A DNA stretch of 64,000 nt from an uncultured Thermoleophilia bacterium (lineage in GTDB: Bacteria > Actinomycetota > Thermoleophilia > UBA2241): positions 64,890 through 128,889 of the forward strand of contig CAVYDV010000003.1 of NCBI GenBank assembly GCA_963767505.1. The letters are read 5' to 3'. A program made the translations under genes and the position numbers. Positions 16,782 to 52,380 of this stretch are shown here, piece by piece; position 1 is the stretch's first letter, and each line of letters starts with the position of its first letter. The notes beneath the pieces were generated by a model that ran no database searches, was not told the DNA's origin, and saw nothing but the letters and a program-made list of their open reading frames with translations.

Positions 16782-17050
16782 GGACCTCCAGACTGCCTGG
16801 CGGAAGGTTCCAAGACTATCGCGCCGCAGCTGCCGGCACCGCCCAAGGGGCGGGCCCGGTGGTGCGGCCGACGACCACGCCCAGCCGCTCCTCCACACCA
16901 CGATTCTGCTATGGTGCTCTCCAGTGTCGCGACGGCCCGAGCTTGCCCATCATCGCAACCTGCCCGGATTGGGTACAATACTCGGGAAGCACTCCCTTCC
17001 GAGCCCCGCAGGGCACACGGAAGGGCAAGTTCGAACTGGAGGAGTGTGCC

Positions 17051-17227
17051 ATGATCTGGGTGCTCGCCGCCCTCATTATCTTCGGCGTCGTTATCTGGCG
17101 ACTGGTTCGGCTCGAGGCGCTAAGCCGTCAGCAGACCGTGGTCATCGAGGAGCTGCACCAGCGTGTGTGGCAGCTGGAAGACCTTGTCGCGATGCTGCAT
17201 CAGAAGCGCCAGTCGCGTCCCGAGTAG
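17051..17227 (+). CDS. small (58 aa) single-TM coiled-coil protein, hypothetical
   Basis: MIWVLAALIIFGVVIWRLVRLEALSRQQTVVIEELHQRVWQLEDLVAMLHQKRQSRPE, with SD GGAGG 8 nt upstream. Confidence 0.45.
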   Translation: MIWVLAALIIFGVVIWRLVRLEALSRQQTVVIEELHQRVWQLEDLVAMLHQKRQSRPE

Positions 17228-17371
17228 CGCCTCCCCCCGCAGCGGACGCGCGGCGGAAGGCCCGAGAAGGTCGATTCCCACCGGCCGTCATCGAGCGTAC
17301 CGCCGCCGATCTCATCGTTCCGTCCGGCTCGACAAGCTTGGCCTGCCACGGCCGTCTGGTACGCTTCCACG

Positions 17372-18095
17372 ATGCTCCGCGCCGTCACTTTCGATTTCTG
17401 GAACACGCTCTTCGTCGACCTCAGCGGCCACGAGCGCGAGAGACGTCGGGCCGACGTCCTCCAGGCAGAGCTGAAGCGCGCGGGCCTTCACCACCCTGTC
17501 GCGGTCGTAGACGAGGCGCTTCGCACGGGCTTCGGATTCTTCGATCGTGTCTGGCTCCTTGAACAGCGCACGCCCAGCTGCGCGGAGATCGTCGACAGCA
17601 TCCTCAGCGCACTGAGCGCACGGCTCCCCGTCGACGCCCAGGACCGGATCGTCGAGGAGTTCGAGCGGATGGTCCTCGATCTGCCGCCGAAGACCAATGG
17701 CCGGCGCCCGGGAGATCGTGCAAAGGCTGAGCAAGAATCACCGTCTCGCCGTCGTCTGCGACACAGGCTACTCCCCCGGCTGGGCCCTGCGAGAGGTCCT
17801 CGAGCGCCATCGTATGCTCGGCGGCTTCGAGTACCTCTTCTTCTCGAACGAGCATGGCATGAGCAAGCCGGACGTCCGCGTCTTTCAGCGCACTCTGGGC
17901 GAACTCGGTGTGTCCGCTCGCGAGGCCGCCCACGTTGGCGACATCCAGCGCACCGACATAGCCGGCGCCCAGGCCGCCGGCATGACCGCCATCCACTTCA
18001 TCGGCGCCAACCATCGCGACGAACCGCACTCGAGCGCCGATGCCATCGTGCGGCACTTCAACCAACTGCCGAGAGCGCTTCGCAAGCTCGCTTGA
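17372..18095 (+). CDS. HAD family hydrolase (frameshifted near 17690)
   Basis: Motif I (MLRAVTFDFWNTLFVD) lies in the frame of ORF 17372... Motifs II-IV (LAVVCDTG, SNEHGMSKPD, HVGDIQRTDIAGAQAAGMTAIHF) lie in the frame of ORF 17697..18095. Confidence 0.75.
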
Positions 18096-41793: not shown

Positions 41794-42231
41794 ATGGCTC
41801 GACAGTTTCCCGAGATCGTGACGTACAAGTCGGCGTTCAGCTTCGCACTTGAAGTCGAGAGAGCGTGTGCCGACTTCGCTGCAGCAGCTGAGGTACTGGC
41901 CCCGACCGGCGCCTGGCAAGCCAAGCTCGAGGAACTCGTGTGTACGCACGACGACCGCGTAGACAAGCTCAGCCACAAGCGTCAGGACGTGGATGAGCCG
42001 CTACATGCACTCAAGGCCGACGAGTATCTCCAGACGCTCGGCAACGAACCGGCCACGAGTTGGCCTGCGGCGGTCGAACAGGTGATCGTGGCCGAAGAGG
42101 ACGCCGCGCGGTATCATGAGGCCTTCGCGGCCGCATGCGGGCCGCTGCTTGGCGATACCGCACGAGCCTTCGCCAAATCCGCGAAGCAAGAACGCGCCGC
42201 CGGCCAAGAGTTGCGCGCGATGCTCGGCTGA
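41794..42231 (+). CDS. hypothetical protein (145 aa)
   Basis: MARQFPEIVTYKSAFSFALEVERACADFAAAAEVLAPTGAWQ.... No confident family assignment. Coding-like third-position bias. Confidence 0.4.
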   Translation: MARQFPEIVTYKSAFSFALEVERACADFAAAAEVLAPTGAWQAKLEELVCTHDDRVDKLSHKRQDVDEPLHALKADEYLQTLGNEPATSWPAAVEQVIVAEEDAARYHEAFAAACGPLLGDTARAFAKSAKQERAAGQELRAMLG

Positions 42232-42263: not shown

Positions 42264-43502
42264 TCAGCCTGCGTGCGGCCCCGCATCGGCGAGTTCGGTC
42301 AACGCCGACCGGGGAACGCCGGCACCCGCGTAGAACCGGACGCCGGCTCGGGCGAGGCCAGCAGTGATGCCCGTGAAGTCGCCATCGAGCACGCCCTCGG
42401 CCGCCCAGACGGGCTTGCCGGCACGGGCGGCCTCCATGACGGCGACGATATTGCGCTCATTCCCATGGCTGACCGGGATCGCCGTCACGATCACCACGTC
42501 GGCACGGGCCATGAGGTCGAGGTTCTCGGCGTGTGTCTCGTCGCTGACCGGCGAGAACGGTGCCTCCACGGCCATCCGCAGGCCAAGCTCGCGACCCGTC
42601 TCCTCATCGGTGTCGAGGGCGTTCAAGACGCCGGCGGACACGTCGTACCCGCCGTCCACCAGCTCGCGCATCATCCCAGCGCCGGTGCCGCCGCCACAAA
42701 CAAGGTGCACGCGCCCCAGACGTTCGCCCCTCAGGCGCGGCGAGAACGTGAGGTAGGTCCTCCCCGCATGTCTGTGCAGAAAGGCACGCACGCCGTACAC
42801 CGCCTCGATAATCTCCGGCCGCAGCACTTCGTCGGGCGCCCCGTAGGCAGCCACCTCGCCCTCGGAGAACACGAGCAGCTTGTCGAAGTAGTGGATCGCG
42901 AGATTCAGGTCGTGGAGCACGCAGAGGACCGTGAGCCCCTCGGCGTTGAGTTGCTTGAGAAGGTCGAAGAGTCGGAGCTGATGAGAGACGTCGAGGGCCG
43001 AGGCGGGCTCGTCCAGGAGAAGCAACTGCGCGCGCTGCATGAGCGCCTGTGCCAGCACCACGAGCTGCTTCTCGCCGCCGGAGAGTTCCGAGAAGCGGCG
43101 ATCGACCAGGCCGCCGACACCGAGCCGAGCGAGCGTCTGGCCGGCGTCGGCGGTCGCATCCGCCTCCTTGGCACGGCAGTAGTAGCCCATCTCGACCACC
43201 TCGCGGACCGAGAGGTCGAACTCCAGCGCGAACTGCTGCGGGACCAGCGCCACCTCACGGGCCATGTCGCGACGCCGATACGTGTGCGTCGGCTTGCCTC
43301 GCACGAGGATCTTGCCGGACTTGGGCCTCAGCACGCCGTCGATGAGATCGAGCAGTGTGCTCTTGCCGCTCCCGTTCGGGCCGACCACGCCGACGAAGTC
43401 ACCCGCATCGACGTCGAAGGAGACGCGCCTCAGGACGGGACGCACGTCGTAGGTGAACCCAAGGTCCATGACCGACACGAGGCTTCTCGACGAGGCCATC
43501 AC
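42264..43502 (-). CDS. Fe3+-siderophore/cobalamin-type ABC transporter ATP-binding protein (FepC/BtuD family) with an about 150-aa C-terminal extension
   Basis: Walker A GPNGSGKSTLL, signature LSGGEKQ and Walker B LLLLDEPASALD. It is followed by the extension HLVCGGGTGAGMMRELVDGGYDVSAGVLNALD...ADVVIVTAIPVSHGNERNIVAVMEAARAGKPVW, which is Rossmann-like. The ATG overlaps the permease stop. Confidence 0.85.
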   Translation of the reverse strand: MMASSRSLVSVMDLGFTYDVRPVLRRVSFDVDAGDFVGVVGPNGSGKSTLLDLIDGVLRPKSGKILVRGKPTHTYRRRDMAREVALVPQQFALEFDLSVREVVEMGYYCRAKEADATADAGQTLARLGVGGLVDRRFSELSGGEKQLVVLAQALMQRAQLLLLDEPASALDVSHQLRLFDLLKQLNAEGLTVLCVLHDLNLAIHYFDKLLVFSEGEVAAYGAPDEVLRPEIIEAVYGVRAFLHRHAGRTYLTFSPRLRGERLGRVHLVCGGGTGAGMMRELVDGGYDVSAGVLNALDTDEETGRELGLRMAVEAPFSPVSDETHAENLDLMARADVVIVTAIPVSHGNERNIVAVMEAARAGKPVWAAEGVLDGDFTGITAGLARAGVRFYAGAGVPRSALTELADAGPHAG

Positions 43503-44494
43503 GACCGCCTCCTGCGCAGCAGGTAGACGAAGAGTGGTGCGCCCACGAAGGTGGTCACGACCCCGACGGGAACCTCCGCCGGCGCCACAATCGTGCGTGA
43601 GAGCAGGTCGGCGATGCCCATCAGGGCGGCGCCGCCGAGAAGCGCGATAGGCAGCATCCGCCGATGTCCAGGACCGACCAGAAGCCGCGCGATGTGTGGG
43701 ACCACCAAGCCGACGAAACCGATGACGCCGGACACGCTCACGGCGATCGCCGTGAGGGCCGCGGCCGTGACCAGCAGGACGCGTTTGGCTCGCTCGACCT
43801 CGACACCTAGTTCAAGAGCGCGCTTCTCGCCCTGGAGGAGGATATCCATCTCTTCGGTGAAGAAGATCGGGACGACCATGAACGGCAGCACGAAGAGGGC
43901 TACTTCGACATCCTGCCAGCCGCGCGCGCTGAAGCTGCCCAGGAGCCAGTAGACGATCGCGTGCATGTCCTCGCCGGCACGGATCATCATCACACTGATC
44001 ACGGCGGTGACGAGGTAGGAGATCGTGACCCCGGCCAGGAGCAGCACGTAGATATCGATCCTCCCGCGCCGTTGCGCCGCGACCCACACGACGGCGAGCG
44101 TCACGAATCCGCCGACCAGAGCGAACAGAGTGACCCAGGGCAGCTGCGCCAGCCTGAGCACGATGCCGAACGTGGCTCCGAGCGCGGCGCCAGACGACAC
44201 ACCGGTGACGTAGGGGTCGGTCAGGGGGTTCAGGAACAGATCCTGCAGGATCACACCGGCGGCCGAGAGAGAGGCGCCGACCAAGAACGCCAGAAGCACC
44301 CGGGGGAGCCGGATCTGCCAGAAGATCACGCCACCCGGTTCGCTCGTTCCCGGCCCCGCGCCCACGTACTCGAGGAGCTTGTCGATGGGCAGCGAGGCCG
44401 GGCCGAAAGCGAGAGACACCACGAGGCACGCAACGAAGATGACGACTACGAGAGCGAGCCCGAGCCGACCCCCATTGCGTGCCTGCGGAGTCAC
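43499..44494 (-). CDS. iron-chelate/cobalamin ABC transporter permease (FecCD family)
   Basis: 331 aa, polytopic, in the FecCD pattern (LLAGVTISYL, GVIGFVGLVVPHIARLLVG). The ATG overlaps the upstream SBP gene's stop. Confidence 0.9.
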   Translation of the reverse strand: MTPQARNGGRLGLALVVVIFVACLVVSLAFGPASLPIDKLLEYVGAGPGTSEPGGVIFWQIRLPRVLLAFLVGASLSAAGVILQDLFLNPLTDPYVTGVSSGAALGATFGIVLRLAQLPWVTLFALVGGFVTLAVVWVAAQRRGRIDIYVLLLAGVTISYLVTAVISVMMIRAGEDMHAIVYWLLGSFSARGWQDVEVALFVLPFMVVPIFFTEEMDILLQGEKRALELGVEVERAKRVLLVTAAALTAIAVSVSGVIGFVGLVVPHIARLLVGPGHRRMLPIALLGGAALMGIADLLSRTIVAPAEVPVGVVTTFVGAPLFVYLLRRRRS

Positions 44495-45459
44495 TGCCCC
44501 TGATACGCCTCAGGATGGATCATCGCGGCGAGCTCCTGAAGGCCGAGCGCAAGTCGAGGCCCGGGACGCGTGATGAGATCGTCGTCGATCACGTAGACGC
44601 GGCCGTCTTCGACGGCGCTCATCTGCCCATGCCCGGGCCTCTTGGCGATGTCACCAGGAGAGCTCTGCGCCCCCGATACCGCGATGTAGACGGCAGGGTC
44701 TTCCTCGATCAGCACCTCGCTGCTGTAGGTGGGGAAGCCGGGACCAGCCGAAGCTCCGAGATTGATGCCCCCGGCGAGGATGACGAGGTCGTCGATGTAC
44801 GAGCCGCTGCCCGCCGTCATCAAGGGCTTGCTGTAGATCTCGATGAACGTCACGCTCTTGTCCAGAGAGCCGGCCTTCGCCGCAACGTCCGCAGCGGCCG
44901 TCTCCATCGCCTCCGTCACCACAGCCGCCTCGTCCGTGACGCCCATGATGAGGCCCAGCTCCGTGATGGTGACGACTACACCGTCGTAGGTCGTCGGATC
45001 CGCCACGTACACCTGCATGCCGAGCTTCTCGAGCTTGCTCCGCAAACCAGCCTGGATGCCGCCGGCGGCGAGGACGAGATCTGGCTGCAAGGCGACGATC
45101 TTCTCGACGCTGGGGTTGGCGAAGTCGCCGATCTTCGGCAGCGCCTTCGCCTCCTCCGGGTAGTCGTCGTAGGAGGTCCCACCGACCAGCTTGTCGCCCG
45201 CCCCGATCGCGAAAGCGATCTCGGTGTTGGCGGGAGCGAGACTGACGACACGTGCTGCCGGTTGCTCAAGCGTCACCTCTTCGCCTGCGTCGTCGGTCAC
45301 CGTGAGCGGACCGGCGGAAGAGGACGGCGAGGGGTCGGCGGCGGAGTCGCCGTCCGATCCGCAACCCACCAGAACGGCGGCACCAAGGGGGCACAGCAGG
45401 AGCGCCGTCACGAGTGCTGCCGCCGCGAACAGGCGGCTACGGGGGCTGGTGATAGTCAT
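44491..45459 (-). CDS. ABC transporter substrate-binding protein, BtuF/FecB-type (PF01497), lipoprotein
   Basis: Lipobox VLVGCGS, then RVVSLAPANTEIAFAIGAGDKLVGGTSYDDYP...IVALQPDLVLAAG. Its ATG overlaps the stop of the upstream PP-loop ATPase gene (ATGA). Confidence 0.8.
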   Translation of the reverse strand: MTITSPRSRLFAAAALVTALLLCPLGAAVLVGCGSDGDSAADPSPSSSAGPLTVTDDAGEEVTLEQPAARVVSLAPANTEIAFAIGAGDKLVGGTSYDDYPEEAKALPKIGDFANPSVEKIVALQPDLVLAAGGIQAGLRSKLEKLGMQVYVADPTTYDGVVVTITELGLIMGVTDEAAVVTEAMETAAADVAAKAGSLDKSVTFIEIYSKPLMTAGSGSYIDDLVILAGGINLGASAGPGFPTYSSEVLIEEDPAVYIAVSGAQSSPGDIAKRPGHGQMSAVEDGRVYVIDDDLITRPGPRLALGLQELAAMIHPEAYQGQ

Positions 45460-46214
45460 TGTGCTTGGTTCTCCCTTCGAGGTGTGGCTCTACATCGTGG
45501 GTCCTCGAACTTCAGGACCCAGTGGTCGTCGCGCTCTTCGTAGCCATCCCATCCGAGCGAGACGGGCGCCGCGAACAGAGGTGCGTCGGTGACCATGGTG
45601 TGATACTCGCACTCCTCGCCGCAGACATCGGCACCGGCGGCCGCGAGATCAGCGGCCAGCTCAGCATCGACCTGCCGGCCGAGATAGGCCGCGTCGAGTC
45701 TGGATGCATCCACCGCGACCACTGTAGCGCGCACGCCAGACCCGATCAGCTCGTCGACGAGCGAGCGCCGCGGTTCCTGCCAGAGGGGCAGATGGCACGA
45801 CGATCCAGCCGCACGGCACGCACCCTCGACCCAATCGCGATGGGCCTGCGTATCGATGTCGCCGAACACGCCCTCCCGGAGACCCCGACGGCGAAGGTCG
45901 CGGAGAGCCGCGACGAAGGTTGGTTCGTACTCAGCCCACGTCGTCGCTCGCGCAACGAGTGGGACGCCGAGCGCAGCGGCTTGCTCCTCGAGCAGCGCGA
46001 GCGGCAGACCGTGGCCGCGACTGTGGGTACCGTCCTCCCGCAGCATGCACAAGAGCGCAGCGGGCCGTCCGCCTTCGGCGACCGCCCGCTGCAGGGCGAG
46101 GTAGGCGTCCTTGCCTCCGCTCCACGAACAGAAGAGCCGGCGGTCGGACAGCGCCGCCCGTGCGTCCGAGTCCGACGACTCCGAAACATGCACGACGTCA
46201 ATCTTCACGGGCAT
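45456..46214 (-). CDS. Dph6/MJ0570-like PP-loop ATP-binding domain protein (DUF71, ATP_bind_4)
   Basis: LFCSWSGGKDAYLAL (SGGKD PP-loop) ...GVFGDIDTQAHRDWV...HLPLWQEP...GEECEYHTMVTDAPLF, matching the MJ0570/diphthine-ammonia-ligase N-domain family. Confidence 0.7.
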   Translation of the reverse strand: MPVKIDVVHVSESSDSDARAALSDRRLFCSWSGGKDAYLALQRAVAEGGRPAALLCMLREDGTHSRGHGLPLALLEEQAAALGVPLVARATTWAEYEPTFVAALRDLRRRGLREGVFGDIDTQAHRDWVEGACRAAGSSCHLPLWQEPRRSLVDELIGSGVRATVVAVDASRLDAAYLGRQVDAELAADLAAAGADVCGEECEYHTMVTDAPLFAAPVSLGWDGYEERDDHWVLKFEDPRCRATPRRENQAQ

Positions 46215-46668
46215 CCTCCCGCGCCTCCCGGCAAGTGGGGCAGATGCCGTAGACCTCGAGATGATGGCCGTAGATGCTGAAGCCCGTCTGCTCGGCAAGC
46301 CGCCGCTCCAGCTCGACGACATCGCCGTCTCCGTCAAAACGCACCAGGCGCCGGCAGACCCCACAGATGAGTGGATGGCTGTGGCCCAGCGGCGGCGCCG
46401 TGTAGCAAATCTCGCCGCGCCGATCCTGCACGCGGGCGAGCAGACCCAGGTCGGAGAGCAAGGTCACGGAGCGATAGACAGTGGCCTGACCGACGCCCTC
46501 GTCCCGCAGAGCGTCAGCAGCTTCACCGATCGTCGCAGCCCGATCGCCGCACGCGAAGAACTCCCAGATCAGACGCCGCTGACGCGTGAACGGGATGCCC
46601 TTCTCGCGAAAGACGACAGCGATCTCAGGCGAAGCCTCGCGCTTCCCAGCGCATGCGTCCACAGGCAA
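46198..46668 (-). CDS. Fur family transcriptional regulator (Fur/Zur/PerR-like)
   Basis: FTRQRRLIWEFF..., an HTH, and the metal-site residues HPLICGVCRRLV...HHLEVYGICPTC. The start codon is TTG. Confidence 0.8.
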   Translation of the reverse strand: MPVDACAGKREASPEIAVVFREKGIPFTRQRRLIWEFFACGDRAATIGEAADALRDEGVGQATVYRSVTLLSDLGLLARVQDRRGEICYTAPPLGHSHPLICGVCRRLVRFDGDGDVVELERRLAEQTGFSIYGHHLEVYGICPTCREAREDARED

Positions 46669-46683
46669 GTCACTCCAGTGTCG

Positions 46684-46700
46684 ATGAGAATCCTTCTCAT
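46684..46700. promoter_or_regulatory. Fur-family-type operator candidate ATGAGAA-TCC-TTCTCAT (perfect 7-3-7 palindrome) immediately upstream of the fur-family gene
   Basis: A perfect inverted repeat, AT-rich in GC-rich context, 16 nt upstream of the regulator start codon. It resembles the TGAnAAnnnTTnTCA core of Fur/Zur boxes. Confidence 0.5.
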
Positions 46701-46738
46701 TCCCAGCTGAGAAACCCTATCAACCGGGCTGCGACGCG

Positions 46739-47845
46739 TCAATCTCCCTGGGCTGCGGGGTGCGGGGGGACGGGCAACGCCGCGAAGGCTGCCAGGAGCC
46801 GATCATTGTGTGGTCTCAGTCGCGGACTGACCCGCACGTACTCGGGCAGGCCGAACGACGCGCAGTCGCGCACGAGACAGCCGTGCTCGAGCAGATCACG
46901 CCGCGCTTCCGCGGCGGAGCCCACGCGGACGAGGAAGAAGCCCGCGGACGAGGGCTCCACAGTCCAGCCGGCAGAGCCCAACACACCCATGAGCCGATCG
47001 CGCTCACGCTCGAGGAGCCGCAGCGCGCGCTGATGGTGTCCACTATCGGCGAGCGCGCGGACGCCGGCAGCTTGCGCGCAGGCGTTCACATTCCACGGCG
47101 GGGCCGCCGCACGCAGCCCCGCCGCCGTCTCAGGCGCTGCAACGACGTAGCCGAGGCGCAGACCGGCGAGACCCCAGGACTTGGTCATCGACCGCAGGAC
47201 CAGGAGATCGCCCTCGGCAAGCAGTGTGCGCGACCACTGCGGCGTGGCGAAGAGTCCGCAGTACGCCTCGTCGAGCACGAAGACGGTGTGAGAGTAGTCG
47301 CGAACGAGAGCTGCGGTCAGGGCCGGAGGCAGCGCCGCTCCGGTGGGGTTGTTCGGGGAACAGAGCCAGCAGAGACGAGGACTCAGCTCCGCCAGGGCGG
47401 TCCGGAGAACGGGCTCGTCACAGCGGAAGCCCGCCCCGGCGCCATCGTGCGCAAGCCTGACCTCGGCGAAACGGGCGCCGGCGAGCCGTGTCGCAACCTC
47501 GTACTCGCCGAACGAAGGTCCCAGCGACAGTGCCGTATCACCGGGCGCCAGCGCCAGCTGGGCGATCAGGCGGATGAGCTCAGTGCTTCCGTTGCCTGCC
47601 ACGACGCAGTCCGCCGGCAGTCCGCAGCGTTCAGCGACGGCGGTACAGAACTCAGAGGCGTGGGGGTCCGGGTAGGCGTCGACGACCGCGGCCGACACGG
47701 CGCCGGCCACACCCGGAGCCGCGCCCAGAGGGGACTGATTGGAACTGAAGTCTATGGTCGCGTCTGGACTGAAGCCCTCGGCACGGAGCGCCGCCGGATC
47801 GATCGCCCCATGTGCGGCCGCAGCAACGCGGCGAAGGACGCTCAC
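46739..47845 (-). CDS. cobD: L-threonine-O-3-phosphate decarboxylase CobD (histidinol-phosphate aminotransferase family)
   Basis: IDFSSNQSPLGAAPGV...LCSPNNPTGA...RSMTKSWGLAGLRLGY. The GTG at 47845 overlaps the cbiB stop (GTGA). The long R/G-rich N-terminus of the ORF is read-through. Confidence 0.8.
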   Translation of the reverse strand: MSVLRRVAAAAHGAIDPAALRAEGFSPDATIDFSSNQSPLGAAPGVAGAVSAAVVDAYPDPHASEFCTAVAERCGLPADCVVAGNGSTELIRLIAQLALAPGDTALSLGPSFGEYEVATRLAGARFAEVRLAHDGAGAGFRCDEPVLRTALAELSPRLCWLCSPNNPTGAALPPALTAALVRDYSHTVFVLDEAYCGLFATPQWSRTLLAEGDLLVLRSMTKSWGLAGLRLGYVVAAPETAAGLRAAAPPWNVNACAQAAGVRALADSGHHQRALRLLERERDRLMGVLGSAGWTVEPSSAGFFLVRVGSAAEARRDLLEHGCLVRDCASFGLPEYVRVSPRLRPHNDRLLAAFAALPVPPHPAAQGD

Positions 47846-48808
47846 CCCCACACCCCCCACGCGACCAGAGCGGCGAACCCGGCGGCGGCGGCGATGACGA
47901 TCCCGCCGCCGGCCCAGACGACAGCCGTCGCCTCCGCAATGACGCCAGCCGTGAGCGGCCGCTCCGCTCGCCCCACTGCGTAGAAGCCGGGGCGCGACAG
48001 GCGCACGCGCAGCGCCCCGGCCATGGGCGCGATCGTCCACAGCTTGTTCGGACTCGCCGAGAAGTGCCGCTGACCCATGAGCGCGGCCCATGCCGTGTTG
48101 GCGGTCCCCCTCACGGATGCGAGTGCGACCAGGAGAAGACCGGTCAGTCGAGCCGGCACCCAGTTCAGCACATCGTCGCAGCGCGCGGCGGCCTTGCCCA
48201 CGTACTCGTACTCGCCGCGATACCCAATCATCGCGTCCATAGTGTTGACCGATCGGTAGACGAGAGCCCCGGGCAAGCCGAACAGAGCGAAGTAGAACAG
48301 CGGCGAGACGACGCTGTCGACGAGGTTCTCGGCTAGAGACTCGACCGTGGCGGACACGATGTGCGGGGCATCAAGCTCGCGGTCGCGGCTCACCAGGGCG
48401 ACGAGGCTGGCACGGGCCTGACCAAGATCGCTCGCGAGAGCCCGACGCACGTCGCTGGCAGCAGCAACGAGACCACGCAGACGAGAAGGTCGTCTTCAGC
48501 ACCGCGGCGCCAAGCGGCAGCGCCAGCCACCAGGGCAACCAGCTCAGCATGAGCACGAGCGCCAAGCCCACGGCAAGGGATGCGCCGACCAAGGCGACCA
48601 CGATCAGGACACCGAACCCCAGCTCGGCCCACGGCCGACCACGCGGACGACGCGCCTCGAGCGCCCCGATGAGCCGGCCCATCCAGACGACCGGATGCGC
48701 CGACGAAGGCGGCTCTCCGAAGACAATGTCGATGACGCCTGCTAGCAGTACCATGGCGAGCGTCAGTGGCCAGCTGTGCGGCACGAGCATCACGAAGCGG
48801 CACCGCAA
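47842..48808 (-). CDS. cbiB: adenosylcobinamide-phosphate synthase CbiB (frameshift near 48450)
   Basis: N-terminus (VLLAGVIDIVFGEPPSSAHPVVWMGRLI) in the frame of ORF 48371..48808. C-terminus (LVSRDRELDAPHIVSATVESLAENLVDSVVSPLFYF...NTMDAMIGY...ARCDDVLNWVPARLT) in the frame of ORF 47842..48450. Confidence 0.8.
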
Positions 48809-49533
48809 GCAGCGTCATCCGCCGAAGCCGCCCCTGCAAGATGACTCGTCCCATTCACGAAGCGAACGTTGACCCAGCCGCTGGACCACTCGAGCAGCGA
48901 GACGCCGCCATGCGTCGTGGTGAGAGCCCACCACTTCTCGGGGAGCACGCCGAGGAAGTGATTGAGGATGGCACGGATGGGACCGTCATGGGCGACGAGG
49001 CAGGCACAGCCGTCCCCCTCGCTCTTCGCCAACGCGCCGACGGGCACGGAGCCTGCCACCACCGCTCCCGCCATGGCAGGCGAACGGCTGTGACGACTGA
49101 CGATGTCGTCCACCGCCGCGAGCACTCGTGACTTCAGCTGGGCGAGGGACTCGCCGCCGGGCAGCGCCGTATGATACGGATCGGCGACCATCGCGGCGTT
49201 GAGCTTCTCGTCGGCGAGGAAGTCGTCCCAGGAACGGCCCTCGTAGACACCCATGTGGATCTCGCGCAGGCGCTCATCGTCGCCGATGAGAGCGGACACG
49301 CCGGACGGCCCCTCCGCGGCAGGCTCCCAGACGGCGGCGATGTGCTCCGCCGTCTCATGCGCCCGGGCGAGATCGCTGCAGTACACAGGCATGGGCCCCA
49401 ACGGCGCCAGCCGCGACGCCACTGCTCGAGCTTGAGCCAGACCCTCCTCCGTGAGGGGATGGGCGCTGTGACCCAGCAGATTCCCGGGCGTGTTGCCAGT
49501 CGAGGCCCCATGCCGCACCAAGTAGAGCTTCAT
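48790..49533 (-). CDS. cobC: alpha-ribazole phosphatase / histidine phosphatase family protein CobC
   Basis: MKLYLVRHGASTGNTPGNLLGHSAHPLTEEG...CSDLARAHETA (RHG...H phosphatase motifs). 247 aa. Confidence 0.75.
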   Translation of the reverse strand: MKLYLVRHGASTGNTPGNLLGHSAHPLTEEGLAQARAVASRLAPLGPMPVYCSDLARAHETAEHIAAVWEPAAEGPSGVSALIGDDERLREIHMGVYEGRSWDDFLADEKLNAAMVADPYHTALPGGESLAQLKSRVLAAVDDIVSRHSRSPAMAGAVVAGSVPVGALAKSEGDGCACLVAHDGPIRAILNHFLGVLPEKWWALTTTHGGVSLLEWSSGWVNVRFVNGTSHLAGAASADDAACGAAS

Positions 49534-49564
49534 CGCTTCTCCTTCGCGAAGAACACCGGTCGAG

Positions 49565-50365
49565 TCACCGTGCCAGAGCGCAGCCGACGACCAGGGCTGC
49601 CGCCTCCGCAAGCTGGATACCCATCCCGTACACGTCCCCAGTGAGGCCGCCAAGCCGCTTCGCCACGGCGGCCTGCATGAGAAGTGCCACACCCACGGCC
49701 ACCACGGCAACGACAACGCACGCCCACCAGCCCCCAGCTCCTCCGACCGCGAGCGTGATGGCGCCGGCGGCCACGAGCGCAGCGACCAGAAGGCCCGCGG
49801 CCAGAGCCACCGGCCCCGGCGTGCGCTCGTGAGTGAAGGCCTCGCCCGTGCCTGTCGGGCGTGCGTACGGCCACACGTACACATCGAGCGCCGGGAGCGC
49901 GCGCGCCGCGGCCCATCCGGCGAGCAAGGGCGCAGCGGAATCGGCGCGCGCCAGCGTGCTCAGGGCCGCGACCTTCAGCAGGAGTATGAGCACGGCCGCA
50001 ACGACTCCCATGGCGCCGACCTGGCTGTCCTTCATGATCTGGAGAGCTCTCTCCCGGGGAGCCCCGCTGAAGATGCCGTCGGCCGTGTCCATGAGGCCGT
50101 CGATATGCAGTCCGCGCGTCAGCACCTCGAGAAGCAGGATGACAAGGACCGCCGCGACCAGCGCCGGCAACAGCTCGAGCAGGCCGGCGTAGGCGCCCCA
50201 CGCGGCGGTGCCGAGCGCCAACCCGACGAGAGGGTACCAGCCCATGCTGCGCCAGAGGTCGGCCGGCGACACCTCACCGCGCACCGGCAGAGGGATGCCG
50301 GTGAGGAAGGTCACCGCCAGCGTCATGTGCCTGAGGTGTCCGGTAGGCCGGCGCAGCTGCTCCAT
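49565..50365 (-). CDS. cobS: adenosylcobinamide-GDP ribazoletransferase (cobalamin 5'-phosphate synthase) CobS
   Basis: MEQLRRPTGHLRHMTLAVTFLTGIP...GLHIDGLMDTADG...LGGLTGDVYG. Confidence 0.85.
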   Translation of the reverse strand: MEQLRRPTGHLRHMTLAVTFLTGIPLPVRGEVSPADLWRSMGWYPLVGLALGTAAWGAYAGLLELLPALVAAVLVILLLEVLTRGLHIDGLMDTADGIFSGAPRERALQIMKDSQVGAMGVVAAVLILLLKVAALSTLARADSAAPLLAGWAAARALPALDVYVWPYARPTGTGEAFTHERTPGPVALAAGLLVAALVAAGAITLAVGGAGGWWACVVVAVVAVGVALLMQAAVAKRLGGLTGDVYGMGIQLAEAAALVVGCALAR

Positions 50366-50372
50366 CAGCGCC

Positions 50373-51458
50373 TCAACGCGCCAGCTGGGCATCCGCCCGG
50401 CTCGAGTCACCAGCGACCCCCGCACTCTCGAAGGTCGCCATATCCGCAAGGACGCGGGCGGCTGCCTCGATGATCCCCATGGCCAGAGCCGCGCCGGTGC
50501 CCTCGCCGAGGCGCATCTGCAGATCGAAGAGCGGCGTCAGGCCGAGCTCGTCGAGCACCACCTGATGGCCGATCTCGATGCTCACATGGCTTGGCAGGAT
50601 GTAGTCGACGCACTCGCGACAGAGCCTCACCGCCACGAGCGCCGCAGCGGCGCTGATGAAACCATCCATCACGACCGGCACCCGGTGTACGGCGGCGCCC
50701 AGGAACACACCCGTCATGGCGGCGATCTCCAGGCCGCCGACCTTGGCCAGCACGCCCAAGGGGTCGGTGGCATCGGGGGAGTTCACGGCAAGCGCCCTCT
50801 CGATGACGGCGACCTTCGCCGGTAGCGCCTCGGCGCTGATACCCGTGCCCCGGCCGGTCACCAGCGCCACCGGCTGGCCGGTCAACGCCGCGATCACCGC
50901 CGAGGCCGCGGTCGTGTTGCCTATGCCCATCTCACCAGTCGCGACGATGTCCAGGCCGAGGACCAGCTCCTCCTCGACCAGCTCCAGCCCAACCTGGACC
51001 GCGGCGAGACACTCCTCATGTGTCATCGCCGGCCCCAGCGCCATGTTGGCTGTGCCCATGCGGACCTTCTTCTGGCGCACTCCGGAAGCATCGCTGAGAT
51101 CGGCATTCACGCCGACGTCAGTGACGATGACCCTGGCGCCGACGTGACGACCGATGACATTGATCGCCGCTCCGCCGGCAACGAAATTCAGGACCATGCC
51201 AGGCGTGACCTCAGCGGGAAACGCGCTCACTCCTTCGGCCGTGACGCCGTGGTCGGCCGCCATGACGGCGATGGCCTTCTGATCGATGACCGGCGCAGGT
51301 GCAACCTTGATGCCGGCCAACTGGATCGACAGCGCTTCCAGTCGGCCAAGAGCCTTGGGGGGCTTGGTGAGCTGCGCCTGCCGCGCTTCCGCTGACCGCA
51401 TGGCGTCGGCGTCCAGCGGCCGGATCTGGCGAATGGCGTGGTCCAACGAGTAGCTCAC
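50373..51458 (-). CDS. cobT: nicotinate-nucleotide--dimethylbenzimidazole phosphoribosyltransferase CobT
   Basis: The GTG start (SD AAGGAG) overlaps the cobU stop (GTGA). LTKPPKALGRLEALSIQLAGI...GEMGIGNTTAASA...VMDGFISAAAAL. Confidence 0.9.
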   Translation of the reverse strand: MSYSLDHAIRQIRPLDADAMRSAEARQAQLTKPPKALGRLEALSIQLAGIKVAPAPVIDQKAIAVMAADHGVTAEGVSAFPAEVTPGMVLNFVAGGAAINVIGRHVGARVIVTDVGVNADLSDASGVRQKKVRMGTANMALGPAMTHEECLAAVQVGLELVEEELVLGLDIVATGEMGIGNTTAASAVIAALTGQPVALVTGRGTGISAEALPAKVAVIERALAVNSPDATDPLGVLAKVGGLEIAAMTGVFLGAAVHRVPVVMDGFISAAAALVAVRLCRECVDYILPSHVSIEIGHQVVLDELGLTPLFDLQMRLGEGTGAALAMGIIEAAARVLADMATFESAGVAGDSSRADAQLAR

Positions 51459-52177
51459 GTCGACTCCTTGGAGAGAGGTGGCGGGGCGTGTGGGCCAGGG
51501 GGTGGGGTGGACGCCCAGGGCGATGCCAGGGCGCACAGGTCGAGCGGAATCCCCGAGACGAGAAAGAATACGCGGTCGGCGGCCGCCGCAAGGCGTTGGT
51601 TGGCCCATCCGAGCTGGTCACGATAGAGGCGCGCCAGCGGGTACTCGGGGACTACGCCGAGTCCCACCTCATTGGAGACGGCAAGGAGCGTCGCCCCGGT
51701 CTCGGCGAGTGCCGCCAGAAGGTCGTCGACGGCGTCCGCGACCCGACGCGCGACGGAGGCCTCCTGGGAGGCGGTCGGCAACGACTTGTCGTAGTTGAAC
51801 CCATCCCCAGGGTCGGTGCCGCCGAAATCGCCGACAGAGAAGATGAGGTTGCTGACCCAGAAGGTGACGCAGTCCAGGAGGAAGACGGACGAGCCGCCCG
51901 TCCCGGCGCGAGCCCGCACGACGGCCGGCACATCAAGGGGGCACTCCACGGTCGCCCAGGCGGCAGGTCGCGCGGCGCGATGCGCGGCGACACGCGACGC
52001 CATCTCGGCGTCGTTGGCCTCGGAGGTCGCAAGGTAGGTCACGCCGACGCGCGAGGCCGCTGCGCCGGACGCCGCCGACTGCTCCTCCGCCAGCGCGGCC
52101 GCGAGCCGCTCGGCGAAGGTACTCTTGCCGCTGCGCGCGCCGCCGGTGACCAGAATGAGTCGATCGTGAGGTCCCAC
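51455..52177 (-). CDS. cobU: bifunctional adenosylcobinamide kinase / adenosylcobinamide-phosphate guanylyltransferase CobU
   Basis: MGPHDRLILVTGGARSGKSTFAERLA (P-loop) ...LLDCVTFWVSN...AVSNEVGLGVVPE. Confidence 0.9.
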   Translation of the reverse strand: MGPHDRLILVTGGARSGKSTFAERLAAALAEEQSAASGAAASRVGVTYLATSEANDAEMASRVAAHRAARPAAWATVECPLDVPAVVRARAGTGGSSVFLLDCVTFWVSNLIFSVGDFGGTDPGDGFNYDKSLPTASQEASVARRVADAVDDLLAALAETGATLLAVSNEVGLGVVPEYPLARLYRDQLGWANQRLAAAADRVFFLVSGIPLDLCALASPWASTPPPGPHAPPPLSKEST

Positions 52178-52209
52178 CGCAGCCCTCCCTCGAGGCTCTC
52201 TCGCGATGA

Positions 52210-52380
52210 CCCCCCAGCCTCGGTGTCCTGGCTCGCGCTTCCTCCTACTGGCCGCGCCTTCCCGCCCCTTTGGGCAGTGGCCACATTGCGGCGGTCGTCC
52301 GCGCCTACAGTTGCGGGGCAGCGCCGGCTTCTCACCGGCTTCCCGAGAACTGAGGGATACGCATGAAGGCTACTCCCGCC
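52210..52380 (-). promoter_or_regulatory. cobalamin (adenosylcobalamin) riboswitch in the cobU leader
   Basis: The minus-strand RNA reads ...GGGAAGCCGGUGAGAAGCCGGCGCUGCCCCGCAACUGUAGG...AUGUGGCCACUGCCCAAAGGGGCGGGAAGGCGCGGCC...GAGCCAGGACACCGAGGCUGG. These are the conserved core, the B12-box (GCCACUG...GGGAAGGC) and the 3' CCAGGA element of RF00174. It is followed by a GC hairpin that can pair with the GAGGGAGGG SD of cobU. Confidence 0.8.

Follow-up and report, generated by a model that had tools for sequence, protein, structure and literature searches.

The 64-kb stretch of DNA analysed here (the window), from an uncultured Thermoleophilia bacterium, carries on its minus strand an 11-gene locus in which a cobalamin riboswitch and the genes cobU, cobT, cobS, cobC, cbiB and cobD are followed by genes for a Fur-family regulator, a PP-loop ATPase of the DUF71 family and a BtuFCD-type ATP-binding cassette (ABC) importer. 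We consider it moderately probable that this locus consists of two adjacent corrinoid-salvage transcription units, and that the second one, formed by the last five genes, places corrinoid import and a DUF71 enzyme of the B12-linked subgroup (DUF71-B12) under repression by the Fur-like protein. An earlier note on this DNA had described a single riboswitch-led array of 12 genes. In contrast, the last five genes were found to form a separate cassette, which has its own conserved promoter and operators and is usually located far from cob genes.

Gene identities in the window were assigned with Pfam and NCBIfam models (Table 1). For comparison, 80 loci containing DUF71 homologues were taken from a one-genome-per-species collection and viewed as ±10 kb loci, 21 of which belong to Thermoleophilia/Actinomycetota. 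The order of the cassette genes in these loci was established by tblastn searches with the window proteins. Five metagenome contigs (L201, L202 and L204-L206) were considered apart from the 80 genome loci, and the riboswitch calls in relatives come from direct Rfam scans of chosen loci.

A conserved five-gene cassette and its genomic context

In all 21 Thermoleophilia/Actinomycetota loci, the genes for the Fur-family regulator, the DUF71 protein, the substrate-binding protein, the permease and the ATPase with its C-terminal extension were found one after the other, all on the same strand, wherever the contig was long enough to show them. The exceptions are L012, whose contig ends after the binding-protein gene, and L018, where the ATPase gene is found approximately 5 kb beyond the permease gene. 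The same order is also kept in the metagenome contigs L201 and L204-L206, which have differing neighbouring genes. A survey of the DUF71 neighbourhoods had been proposed in the earlier note, and it supported a non-random adjacency to an importer, as seen in the 21 loci, in the four metagenome contigs and in the btu/cob operons of other phyla.

A complete cob operon directly upstream of the cassette was observed only in L003 and in the contigs L201 and L202. The cobUTSC genes lie 1.5-6 kb from the cassette in L019 and L020, and L001, L007, L014 and L017 contain only cob fragments at the edge of the locus, while the remaining Thermoleophilia/Actinomycetota cassette loci have no cob gene within 10 kb. 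Among the metagenome contigs, five unrelated genes separate cobD from fur in L204, CbiM is encoded about 9 kb away in L206, and the annotated context of L205 shows no cob genes. Rfam scans detected no cobalamin riboswitch in any of the 17 cassette loci without a neighbouring cobU; in L003, L019 and L020, where cobU is present, the riboswitch is situated immediately before this gene. These 17 loci, together with the promoter upstream of fur described below, come close to the separate regulation that the earlier note had itself named as evidence against its proposal.

Related cassettes in other phyla lack the Fur gene and are led by a riboswitch. In L036 (Moorellaceae), the riboswitch is followed by the genes for the binding protein, the permease, the ATPase with its extension and the DUF71 protein. 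In L051 (Ca. Geothermincola), the order is riboswitch, cobUTS, cbiB, cobD, binding protein, DUF71, permease and ATPase with extension, and L029 and L043 are similar. The operons of L036 and L051 share with the Thermoleophilia cassette the related genes, at 38-48% identity, the MJ0874-type extension of the ATPase and the position of the DUF71 gene within the transporter operon. However, they possess a riboswitch and no Fur gene, whereas the Thermoleophilia cassette possesses a Fur gene and no riboswitch in the loci scanned. Judged from this comparison, the Fur-like repressor appears to hold the regulatory slot that the B12 riboswitch occupies in the cassettes of other phyla. Seven DUF71 loci from non-actinobacterial phyla without detectable cob genes also showed no riboswitch on the Rfam scan, which fits the published statement that not all members of the family are linked to B12 (PMC3541065).

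Putative promoter and operators upstream of fur

The genes cobD and fur do not overlap, and the spacer of 70-76 nucleotides (nt) between them holds a putative promoter (P2) and operators. An alignment of the regions upstream of fur in the window and the 21 loci (22 regions) showed that the pattern TTGACG-N17-TAGNNT, followed by two related inverted repeats, is conserved in nearly all of them. In the aligned family, box 1 (GTTGATAGnTTTTCTCAAC) overlaps the -10 element and box 2 corresponds to GTTGAGAACnGTTCTCAAC. In every region in which both boxes scored in the scan, their start points are 22 nt apart, box 2 being the downstream one. The palindromic box that the earlier note had assigned to the Fur gene is box 2, and its perfect symmetry was confirmed. 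The half-site arrangement TGAGAA-N3-TTCTCA is a variant of the classic 7-1-7 box of Fur, Zur and PerR.

A position weight matrix of box 2 was applied to 492 kb of sequence (25 loci and the whole window) and matched only at fur promoters; likewise, exact operator matches in the 80 genome loci were located upstream of fur only. Actinobacterial-type promoters follow the pattern TTGACN-N17/18-TANNNT, and both P2 and the putative promoter of the cob genes (P1) conform to it. An E. coli-type promoter scan found nothing and missed both. The conserved promoter and operators upstream of fur suggest two transcription units, of which the second is probably an operon that is repressed by the Fur-like protein and thereby autoregulated.

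The operator architecture varies within the clade. The more divergent Actinomycetota loci L019-L021 have a single operator-like box, ATTGATAATTTCTCTCAAC, directly before the start codon, and L018 has no scoring operator box. To reveal a regulon, metagenomes were also scanned for the 14-base operator TTGAGAANNNTTCTCAA, but most of the 120 loci returned were unrelated and the scan was uninformative. Only L087 among them contained a close member of the Fur subfamily, and three others contained distant Fur-family homologues with 31-35% identity.

The Fur-family regulator

The regulator belongs to the Fur family according to Pfam, but it scores below every NCBIfam cutoff for Fur, Zur, PerR and Irr (PerR, 49.2 vs 180; Fur, 43.2 vs 220; Zur, 33.2 vs 167). 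Its subfamily is conserved at 75-94% identity, which is tighter than the 64-75% found for the DUF71 protein, and a library clustered at 50% identity contained only 10 representatives at E <= 1e-30. The cysteines C100, C103, C141 and C144 (numbering of the 154-residue protein), which constitute a Cys4 structural site of two CxxC motifs, are invariant. In Mycobacterium tuberculosis FurB/Zur (2O03), we take D62, C76, H81 and H83 to form site 1, and the H-x-H...H set to be site 3, or 'M-site'. The alignment with this protein showed that H94, H96 and H133 are kept. Further proteins (P0289-P0299), a tail of the Fur family at 40-48% identity, share the unusual G-H-x-H and EGHHLE motifs. The proteins P0287 (698 residues) and P0288 (398 residues) had the appearance of Fur-DUF71 fusions but proved to be Arg/Pro-rich out-of-frame read-throughs of frameshifted contigs.

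Compared with autoregulated Fur/Zur/Nur repressors of metal uptake, which use 7-1-7 or 9-1-9 boxes, the window system has the same PF01475 fold, the Cys4 site, TGAGAA-N3-TTCTCA operators and the overlap of the operators with the promoter of an uptake operon led by the regulator gene. It differs from them in that the protein lacks the canonical sensing ligands and stays below the family cutoffs, and in that its apparent target is a corrinoid importer. Because the ligands of the canonical sensing site are replaced, the effector is not readable from the sequence. The loss of these ligands, the stronger conservation relative to the DUF71 protein and the restriction of the operator to its own promoter in the available sequence led us to ask whether the Fur-like protein might be a dedicated sensor of cobalt or a corrinoid, which replaced the B12 riboswitch over corrinoid uptake and DUF71-B12 in Thermoleophilia and related Actinomycetota. 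We regard this as a doubtful possibility. A literature search on Fur-family control of cobalamin transport returned nothing relevant.

The DUF71-B12 enzyme

The DUF71 protein contains the PP-loop SWSGGKD at residues 30-36 and the motif GEECEYHT at residues 199-206, and the precomputed domains of its homologues comprise PF01902 at the N-terminus and PF28410 at the C-terminus. In the alignment with the Dph6 proteins PH1257 and PF0828, the PP-loop matches their SGGKD, while GEECEYHT stands opposite GEGGEFET, so that His replaces the catalytic Glu188. The signature GExGE[FY]H[TS] is present in all 80 related loci, and cob or btu genes lie within 10 kb in 40/80. More than 1,500 homologues of the protein were found in databases; the best 18 loci of the one-genome-per-species collection show 64-74% identity, and every one of them comes from a metagenome-assembled genome (MAG) assigned to Thermoleophilia or to another group of Actinomycetota.

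The DUF71/COG2102 family was divided by de Crecy-Lagard et al. (Biol Direct 2012, PMC3541065) into Dph6 and a bacterial, in some cases archaeal, subgroup named DUF71-B12, bacteria being without diphthamide. In that study, DUF71-B12 genes adjoin BtuCDF-type genes in 75/102 and cbiB in 18/102 cases, the signature ENGE[F/Y]H contains His in place of the catalytic Glu188 of Dph6, and a strict anti-correlation with CbiZ in bacteria led to a proposed role in the salvage of (pseudo-)B12. A single actinobacterial homologue, from Conexibacter woesei (Solirubrobacterales, Thermoleophilia), is listed in its genome table. The claim in the earlier note that a PP-loop enzyme tied to B12 salvage had not been described is incorrect, since that paper had already defined the subgroup and reported that its genes cluster with those for BtuCDF and with cbiB. 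The related claim, that bacterial members have no assigned function, is correct only insofar as no experimental confirmation was found in the literature; a B12-salvage role had been predicted. We likewise found no later experimental paper on the DUF71-B12 enzyme, and its function remains a prediction.

The window protein belongs to this subgroup. It shares with it the SGGKD motif, the C-terminal ExGE[F/Y]H with His, the adjacency to btuFCD, a nearby cbiB, the bacterial host and, as read from its N-terminus, a cytoplasmic location. In contrast to the published signature, the Asn is replaced by Glu in this clade (GEEGEYHT), and in the window alone the Gly is replaced by Cys. Furthermore, the gene is coupled to a Fur-family gene, with no riboswitch in the scanned cassettes, an arrangement that we did not find mentioned in PMC3541065. 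With Dph6 (PF0828 and PH1257; 3RK1 and 2D13), the protein has in common the PF01902 N-terminal domain, the C-terminal domain family and the PP-loop, and it reaches 62 bits against PH1257. However, it differs in the His at the position of Glu188 and scores only 84.5 bits against TIGR03679, whose cutoff is 197.3.

The 17-nt overlap with fur and the ATGA overlap with the binding-protein gene indicate translational coupling of the DUF71 gene. The functional link to the BtuF-type importer, which the earlier note had argued from the ATGA overlap, is strengthened by the conserved adjacency. Codon 202 (45609-45611) is TGC (Cys) in the window through a change from GGC at 45611, compared with Gly in L201 and in all 80 genome loci. 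In addition, when the codons that differ between the window and L201 are sorted into non-synonymous and synonymous changes, the DUF71 gene has the highest ratio of the former to the latter (0.85, compared with 0.25-0.64 for the other genes).

The BtuFCD-type importer

The closest solved structures to the substrate-binding protein are those of BtuF, with 5ysc at 6.5e-29 and E. coli BtuF at about 1e-22, followed by haem binders at about 1e-19. Its score against the BtuF model NF002894 is 109, compared with a cutoff of 234. The earlier note had considered that a BtuF-type importer fits corrinoid uptake, and the BtuF-like relatives of the binding protein make a corrinoid plausible as the transported substrate. 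As in type II BtuFCD importers, a BtuF-like binding protein, a FecCD permease and a FepC/BtuD-type ATPase are encoded together. The 402-position model NF007082 extends beyond the ABC domain, and the extension of the window ATPase matches its positions 269-354. Differences from the systems behind NF007081 and NF007082 are the window scores of about half the cutoffs, the bacterial host and the apparent regulation by a Fur-family protein. Both models are presumably derived from a haloarchaeal corrinoid transporter. A study entitled 'ABC transporter for corrinoids in Halobacterium sp. NRC-1' is among the works cited in PMC1447603.

The C-terminal extension of the ATPase had been regarded in the earlier note as a separate 'etfA-like' gene. 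It is in fact the C-terminal stretch of one ATPase open reading frame (ORF), fused likewise in all relatives that reach that far. Precomputed annotation of homologues assigns it to the MJ0874 domain, while a local Pfam search of the window ATPase gave no match in this region, and no literature on MJ0874 was found. An AlphaFold2 (AF2) model of the extension, with a predicted local distance difference test (pLDDT) value of 92, adopts a Rossmann-like alpha/beta fold with only generic structural neighbours (YjeF/ribokinase, Sir2, DprA, MoCo-carrier and LOG-like proteins). Other ABC importer ATPases carry C-terminal regulatory domains, and we speculate that the MJ0874 extension may be a ligand-sensing regulatory domain. 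It is also present on the ATPases of the riboswitch-led loci L036 and L051.

Organization of the locus and the riboswitch-led cob genes

The features of both units are listed in Table 1.

Table 1. Features of the corrinoid-salvage locus, listed in the direction of transcription (window coordinates).
Feature	Position	Strand	Evidence and remarks
Putative promoter P1	52367..52396	-	-35 TTGACG 52396-52391, 18-nt spacer, -10 TAGCCT 52372-52367; read from sequence
Cobalamin riboswitch aptamer	52199..52369	-	RF00174, 88.7 bits vs gathering 31.5, E 1.4e-20, full model 1-189
cobU, cobinamide kinase / cobinamide-phosphate guanylyltransferase	51455..52177	-	PF02283, 182 bits; 240 residues, equal in L201
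cobT, nicotinate-nucleotide:dimethylbenzimidazole (DMB) phosphoribosyltransferase	50373..51458	-	PF02277 (DBI_PRT), 440 bits; GTGA overlap with cobU
cobS, cobalamin-5'-phosphate synthase	49565..50365	-	PF02654, 171 bits
cobC-type histidine phosphatase (alpha-ribazole-phosphate / cobalamin-phosphate phosphatase type)	48790..49533	-	PF00300, 144 bits
cbiB, adenosylcobinamide-phosphate synthase, frameshifted	47842..48790	-	PF03186 split over two frames, profile 2-93 and 105-262
cobD, L-threonine-O-3-phosphate decarboxylase type aminotransferase	46739..47845	-	PF00155, 169 bits; GTGA overlap with cbiB; 368 residues as in L201
Putative promoter P2 of the fur cassette	46714..46742	-	-35 TTGACG 46742-46737 over cobD stop codon, 17-nt spacer, -10 TAGGGT 46719-46714
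Putative operator box 1 (GTTGATAGGGTTTCTCAGC)	46706..46724	-	Fur-box-like, degenerate 9-1-9, overlaps -10; alignment and weight matrix
Putative operator box 2 (ATGAGAA-GGA-TTCTCAT)	46684..46700	-	Perfect 7-3-7 palindrome; family consensus GTTGAGAACnGTTCTCAAC, 9-1-9 palindrome
Fur-family regulator, 154 residues	46198..46662	-	GTG 46662 (TTG 46668 also possible); PF01475, 47 bits vs cutoff 23.1, profile 2-121
DUF71-B12 subgroup PP-loop ATPase, 252 residues	45456..46214	-	PF01902, 113.7 bits; overlaps fur by 17 nt and btuF by 4 nt
BtuF-like substrate-binding protein	44491..45459	-	PF01497 (Peripla_BP_2), 113 bits; lipoprotein-signal-like N-terminus (LVGCGS)
BtuC-like FecCD permease	43499..44494	-	PF01032, 298 bits; best NCBIfam NF007081 BtuC, 283.5 vs cutoff 461
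BtuD-like ABC ATPase, 411-412 residues	42264..43499/43502	-	PF00005, 117 bits; best NCBIfam NF007082 'corrinoid ABC transporter ATPase', 274.7 vs 537
MJ0874 domain (PF27219), about 150 residues from residue 263 of the ATPase	42267-42713	-	Precomputed for homologues

RF00174 and the Pfam matches agree with the earlier description of a cobalamin riboswitch followed by co-directional minus-strand genes for cob enzymes, a Fur-family protein, a PF01902 protein and an importer; the gene count is corrected from 12 to 11, as the 'etfA-like' gene is part of the ATPase ORF. The boundaries given there (42264-52380) also stand, because the flanking genes are unrelated or on the opposite strand. The flanks contain an SBP_bac_5 gene and a 145-residue ORF on one side, and a Crp-like helix-turn-helix (HTH) gene, a ferredoxin gene and a RecQ gene on the other. 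As for the overlapping start and stop codons, the GTGA at cobU/cobT (51455-51458) and cbiB/cobD (47842-47845) and the ATGA between the DUF71 and binding-protein genes (45456-45459) were confirmed. However, the binding-protein and permease genes are joined by GTGA, and the permease and ATPase genes by GTGATG, instead of the ATGA reported for both.

The cobalamin riboswitch was the sole Rfam family matched in the 64 kb. P1 adjoins the aptamer on its upstream side, with a slight overlap, and shares the type TTGACG / TAGNNT with the fur promoter. From the end of the riboswitch to the GTG start codon of cobU there are 21 nt, which include a GGGAGG Shine-Dalgarno sequence. Owing to this short distance and the intervening Shine-Dalgarno sequence, the riboswitch probably acts on translation rather than on distal transcription. 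The cobC-type gene has a GAAGGAG ribosome-binding site ahead of its ATG.

The contig L201 is 95.3% identical in DNA to the window across 12.5 kb and has the identical 11-gene order by independent gene calls, which comprise a Fur protein of 154 residues, a DUF71 protein of 252 residues whose gene overlaps fur by 17 nt, an ATPase of 411 residues and an intact CbiB of 315 residues. Relative to this contig, the split of cbiB in the window is explained by one extra G at 48482 (TTCTCgTCTG in the window vs TTCTCTCTG in L201). The gene is also intact in L202, L003, L007 and L204.

Two minor observations were made outside the locus genes. The 145-residue ORF (41794-42231, plus strand) is convergent with the end of the cassette and has no Pfam match, and a 145-residue gene without Pfam match is found at the equivalent position in L201 and L202. 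In L022, a Halanaerobiales MAG, an OLE (ornate large extremophilic) RNA at 16958-17501 follows the DUF71 homologue at a distance of about 6 kb, which is probably coincidental.

Proposed model and alternative explanations

In the model that we favour, unit 1 would consist of its promoter, an adenosylcobalamin-type riboswitch and cobU-cobT-cobS-cobC-cbiB-cobD, and it would rebuild the nucleotide loop and the aminopropanol linker. B12 would probably switch this unit off at the initiation of cobU translation. For unit 2, the Fur-like protein together with a co-repressor would bind the two operators and repress its own gene and the four genes downstream. The ABC system is predicted to import corrinoids, and the cytoplasmic DUF71-B12 enzyme would use ATP to render the imported corrinoid usable, through an adenylation at the PP-loop that releases AMP and pyrophosphate (PPi). 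Specifically, a free side-chain carboxylate of the corrinoid would be adenylated and then amidated with ammonia, so that corrinoids which are incomplete or have lost amide groups would be repaired in the direction of cobyric acid or cobinamide. Amidation is favoured by the precedent within the family, as Dph6 converts a carboxylate with NH3 and ATP into an amide, AMP and PPi. Within the corrinoid model we consider this particular activity a serious candidate, to which we would give slightly less than an even chance.

Several observations weigh against this interpretation. The stretch between cobD and fur showed no intrinsic terminator, and riboswitch-controlled read-through from cobD into unit 2 is therefore possible in the arrangement of the window. 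The scores against the BtuC and BtuD models stay below the equivalog cutoffs, so that corrinoid specificity is argued from similarity and from the context in other phyla. In the Fur-like protein, the residues aligned with D62, C76, H81 and H83 of FurB are A, P, S and P, the motif reads G-H-S-H-P, and the His of the DNA-binding domain of classical Fur ('HxSAEE') is replaced by Ala; judging from these replacements, even a metal effector is not assured. The Cys at the invariant Gly position of the DUF71 protein, together with the cbiB frameshift, may signify that this copy of the pathway is decaying, or that the sequence contains errors. Finally, the authors of PMC3541065 favoured a CbiZ-like role for DUF71-B12.

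The absence of a terminator in the cobD-fur spacer, the co-directional and tight packing of all genes and the recurrence of the 11-gene order in L201/L202 and L003 would suit the view of the earlier note, namely one riboswitch-led operon of 11 genes in which DUF71 and the importer are regulated chiefly by B12, and the Fur gene with its palindrome is a minor internal feature. We consider such an operon quite unlikely. The arrangement is exceptional, as most loci have the cassette alone, kilobases from cob genes, and the 17 such loci scanned lack the riboswitch. The conserved -35/-10 elements and two operators directly upstream of fur are found in the window as well, and the riboswitch, given its distance to cobU, would hardly act on distal transcription. 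A different question is what the importer transports. Fur-family regulators normally repress the uptake of the metal that they sense, and the importer could accordingly carry a metal or a chelate (cobalt, as with CbtJKL, haem or a siderophore) under classical Fur repression, with DUF71 acting on a non-corrinoid. The BtuF-like CbtJKL of Sinorhizobium meliloti was found to import Co(II) (PMC7689651), and the BtuC/BtuD scores below the cutoffs and the haem-binding proteins among the relatives would also be compatible with this view. We therefore compared the window with a candidate cbtJKL locus on pSymB, which is unannotated there and was picked by its permease and ATPase matches, the adjacent upstream ORF for a binding protein and the upstream riboswitch. 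The candidate has the BtuF-like fold class, the FecCD permease, the ATPase and, through the B12 riboswitch just upstream, the link to B12 status in common with the window system, but the stretch examined shows no DUF71 or Fur gene. The two binding proteins are 24% identical (55 bits) and differ in their closest solved structures, and the match of the CbtJ candidate to BtuF is only 3e-4, far from the values of the window protein, which weakens the cobalt-importer reading. Furthermore, the best NCBIfam models of the permease and the ATPase are BtuC and the 'corrinoid ABC transporter ATPase', the His signature is present in all 80 DUF71 homologues with cob or btu genes near half of them, and 75/102 of the published DUF71-B12 genes adjoin B12 transporters (PMC3541065). 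Transport of a metal or chelate was hence retained only as a minor and improbable alternative.

The same two-unit architecture can also be combined with another chemistry. Instead of amidating the corrinoid, DUF71-B12 might be a non-orthologous replacement of CbiZ that cleaves the lower ligand/aminopropanol arm of pseudo-B12 or cobinamide, and the resulting adenosylcobyric acid would be rebuilt by CbiB and CobD. The strict anti-correlation with CbiZ in bacterial genomes (PMC3541065) speaks for this idea, as do the change of Glu188 to His, which suggests altered chemistry, and the frequent proximity of DUF71 to cbiB and cobD, which encode enzymes that act on cobyric acid (L028, L039, L043, L051, L077 and the window). 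Nevertheless, neither Pfam nor the alignment revealed a CbiZ-like fold or motif in the window DUF71 protein, and the anti-correlation is a genome-level trait, while 64 kb of this genome are in view. To our knowledge, the PP-loop ATPases characterised so far form C-N or C-S bonds after adenylating an oxygen or a carboxylate of the substrate, and we know of no precedent for a member that hydrolyses an amide. We therefore rate the replacement of CbiZ as rather unlikely, although it is less remote than a single riboswitch-led operon or a metal importer.

Implications

The salvage cluster of DUF71-B12 and BtuFCD has been known since 2012, and the less ordinary aspect of this locus is the apparent control of the uptake genes by a Fur-family protein. 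A literature search on Thermoleophilia with cobalamin salvage returned nothing relevant. For work on the function of DUF71-B12, the clade provides a compact set of five genes, and Conexibacter woesei, whose DUF71 homologue is YP_003396308, is available in culture. With respect to regulation, corrinoid uptake throughout an actinobacterial clade appears to depend on an atypical Fur-family repressor with a well-defined double operator, where other phyla rely on a riboswitch. Should the repressor respond to cobalt or to a corrinoid, this would widen the sensing range of the Fur family by a new effector class and would show an exchange between riboswitch and protein control. If the effector is iron or zinc, the scavenging of B12 would be tied to metal limitation, which would be ecologically relevant for the abundant Thermoleophilia of soils.

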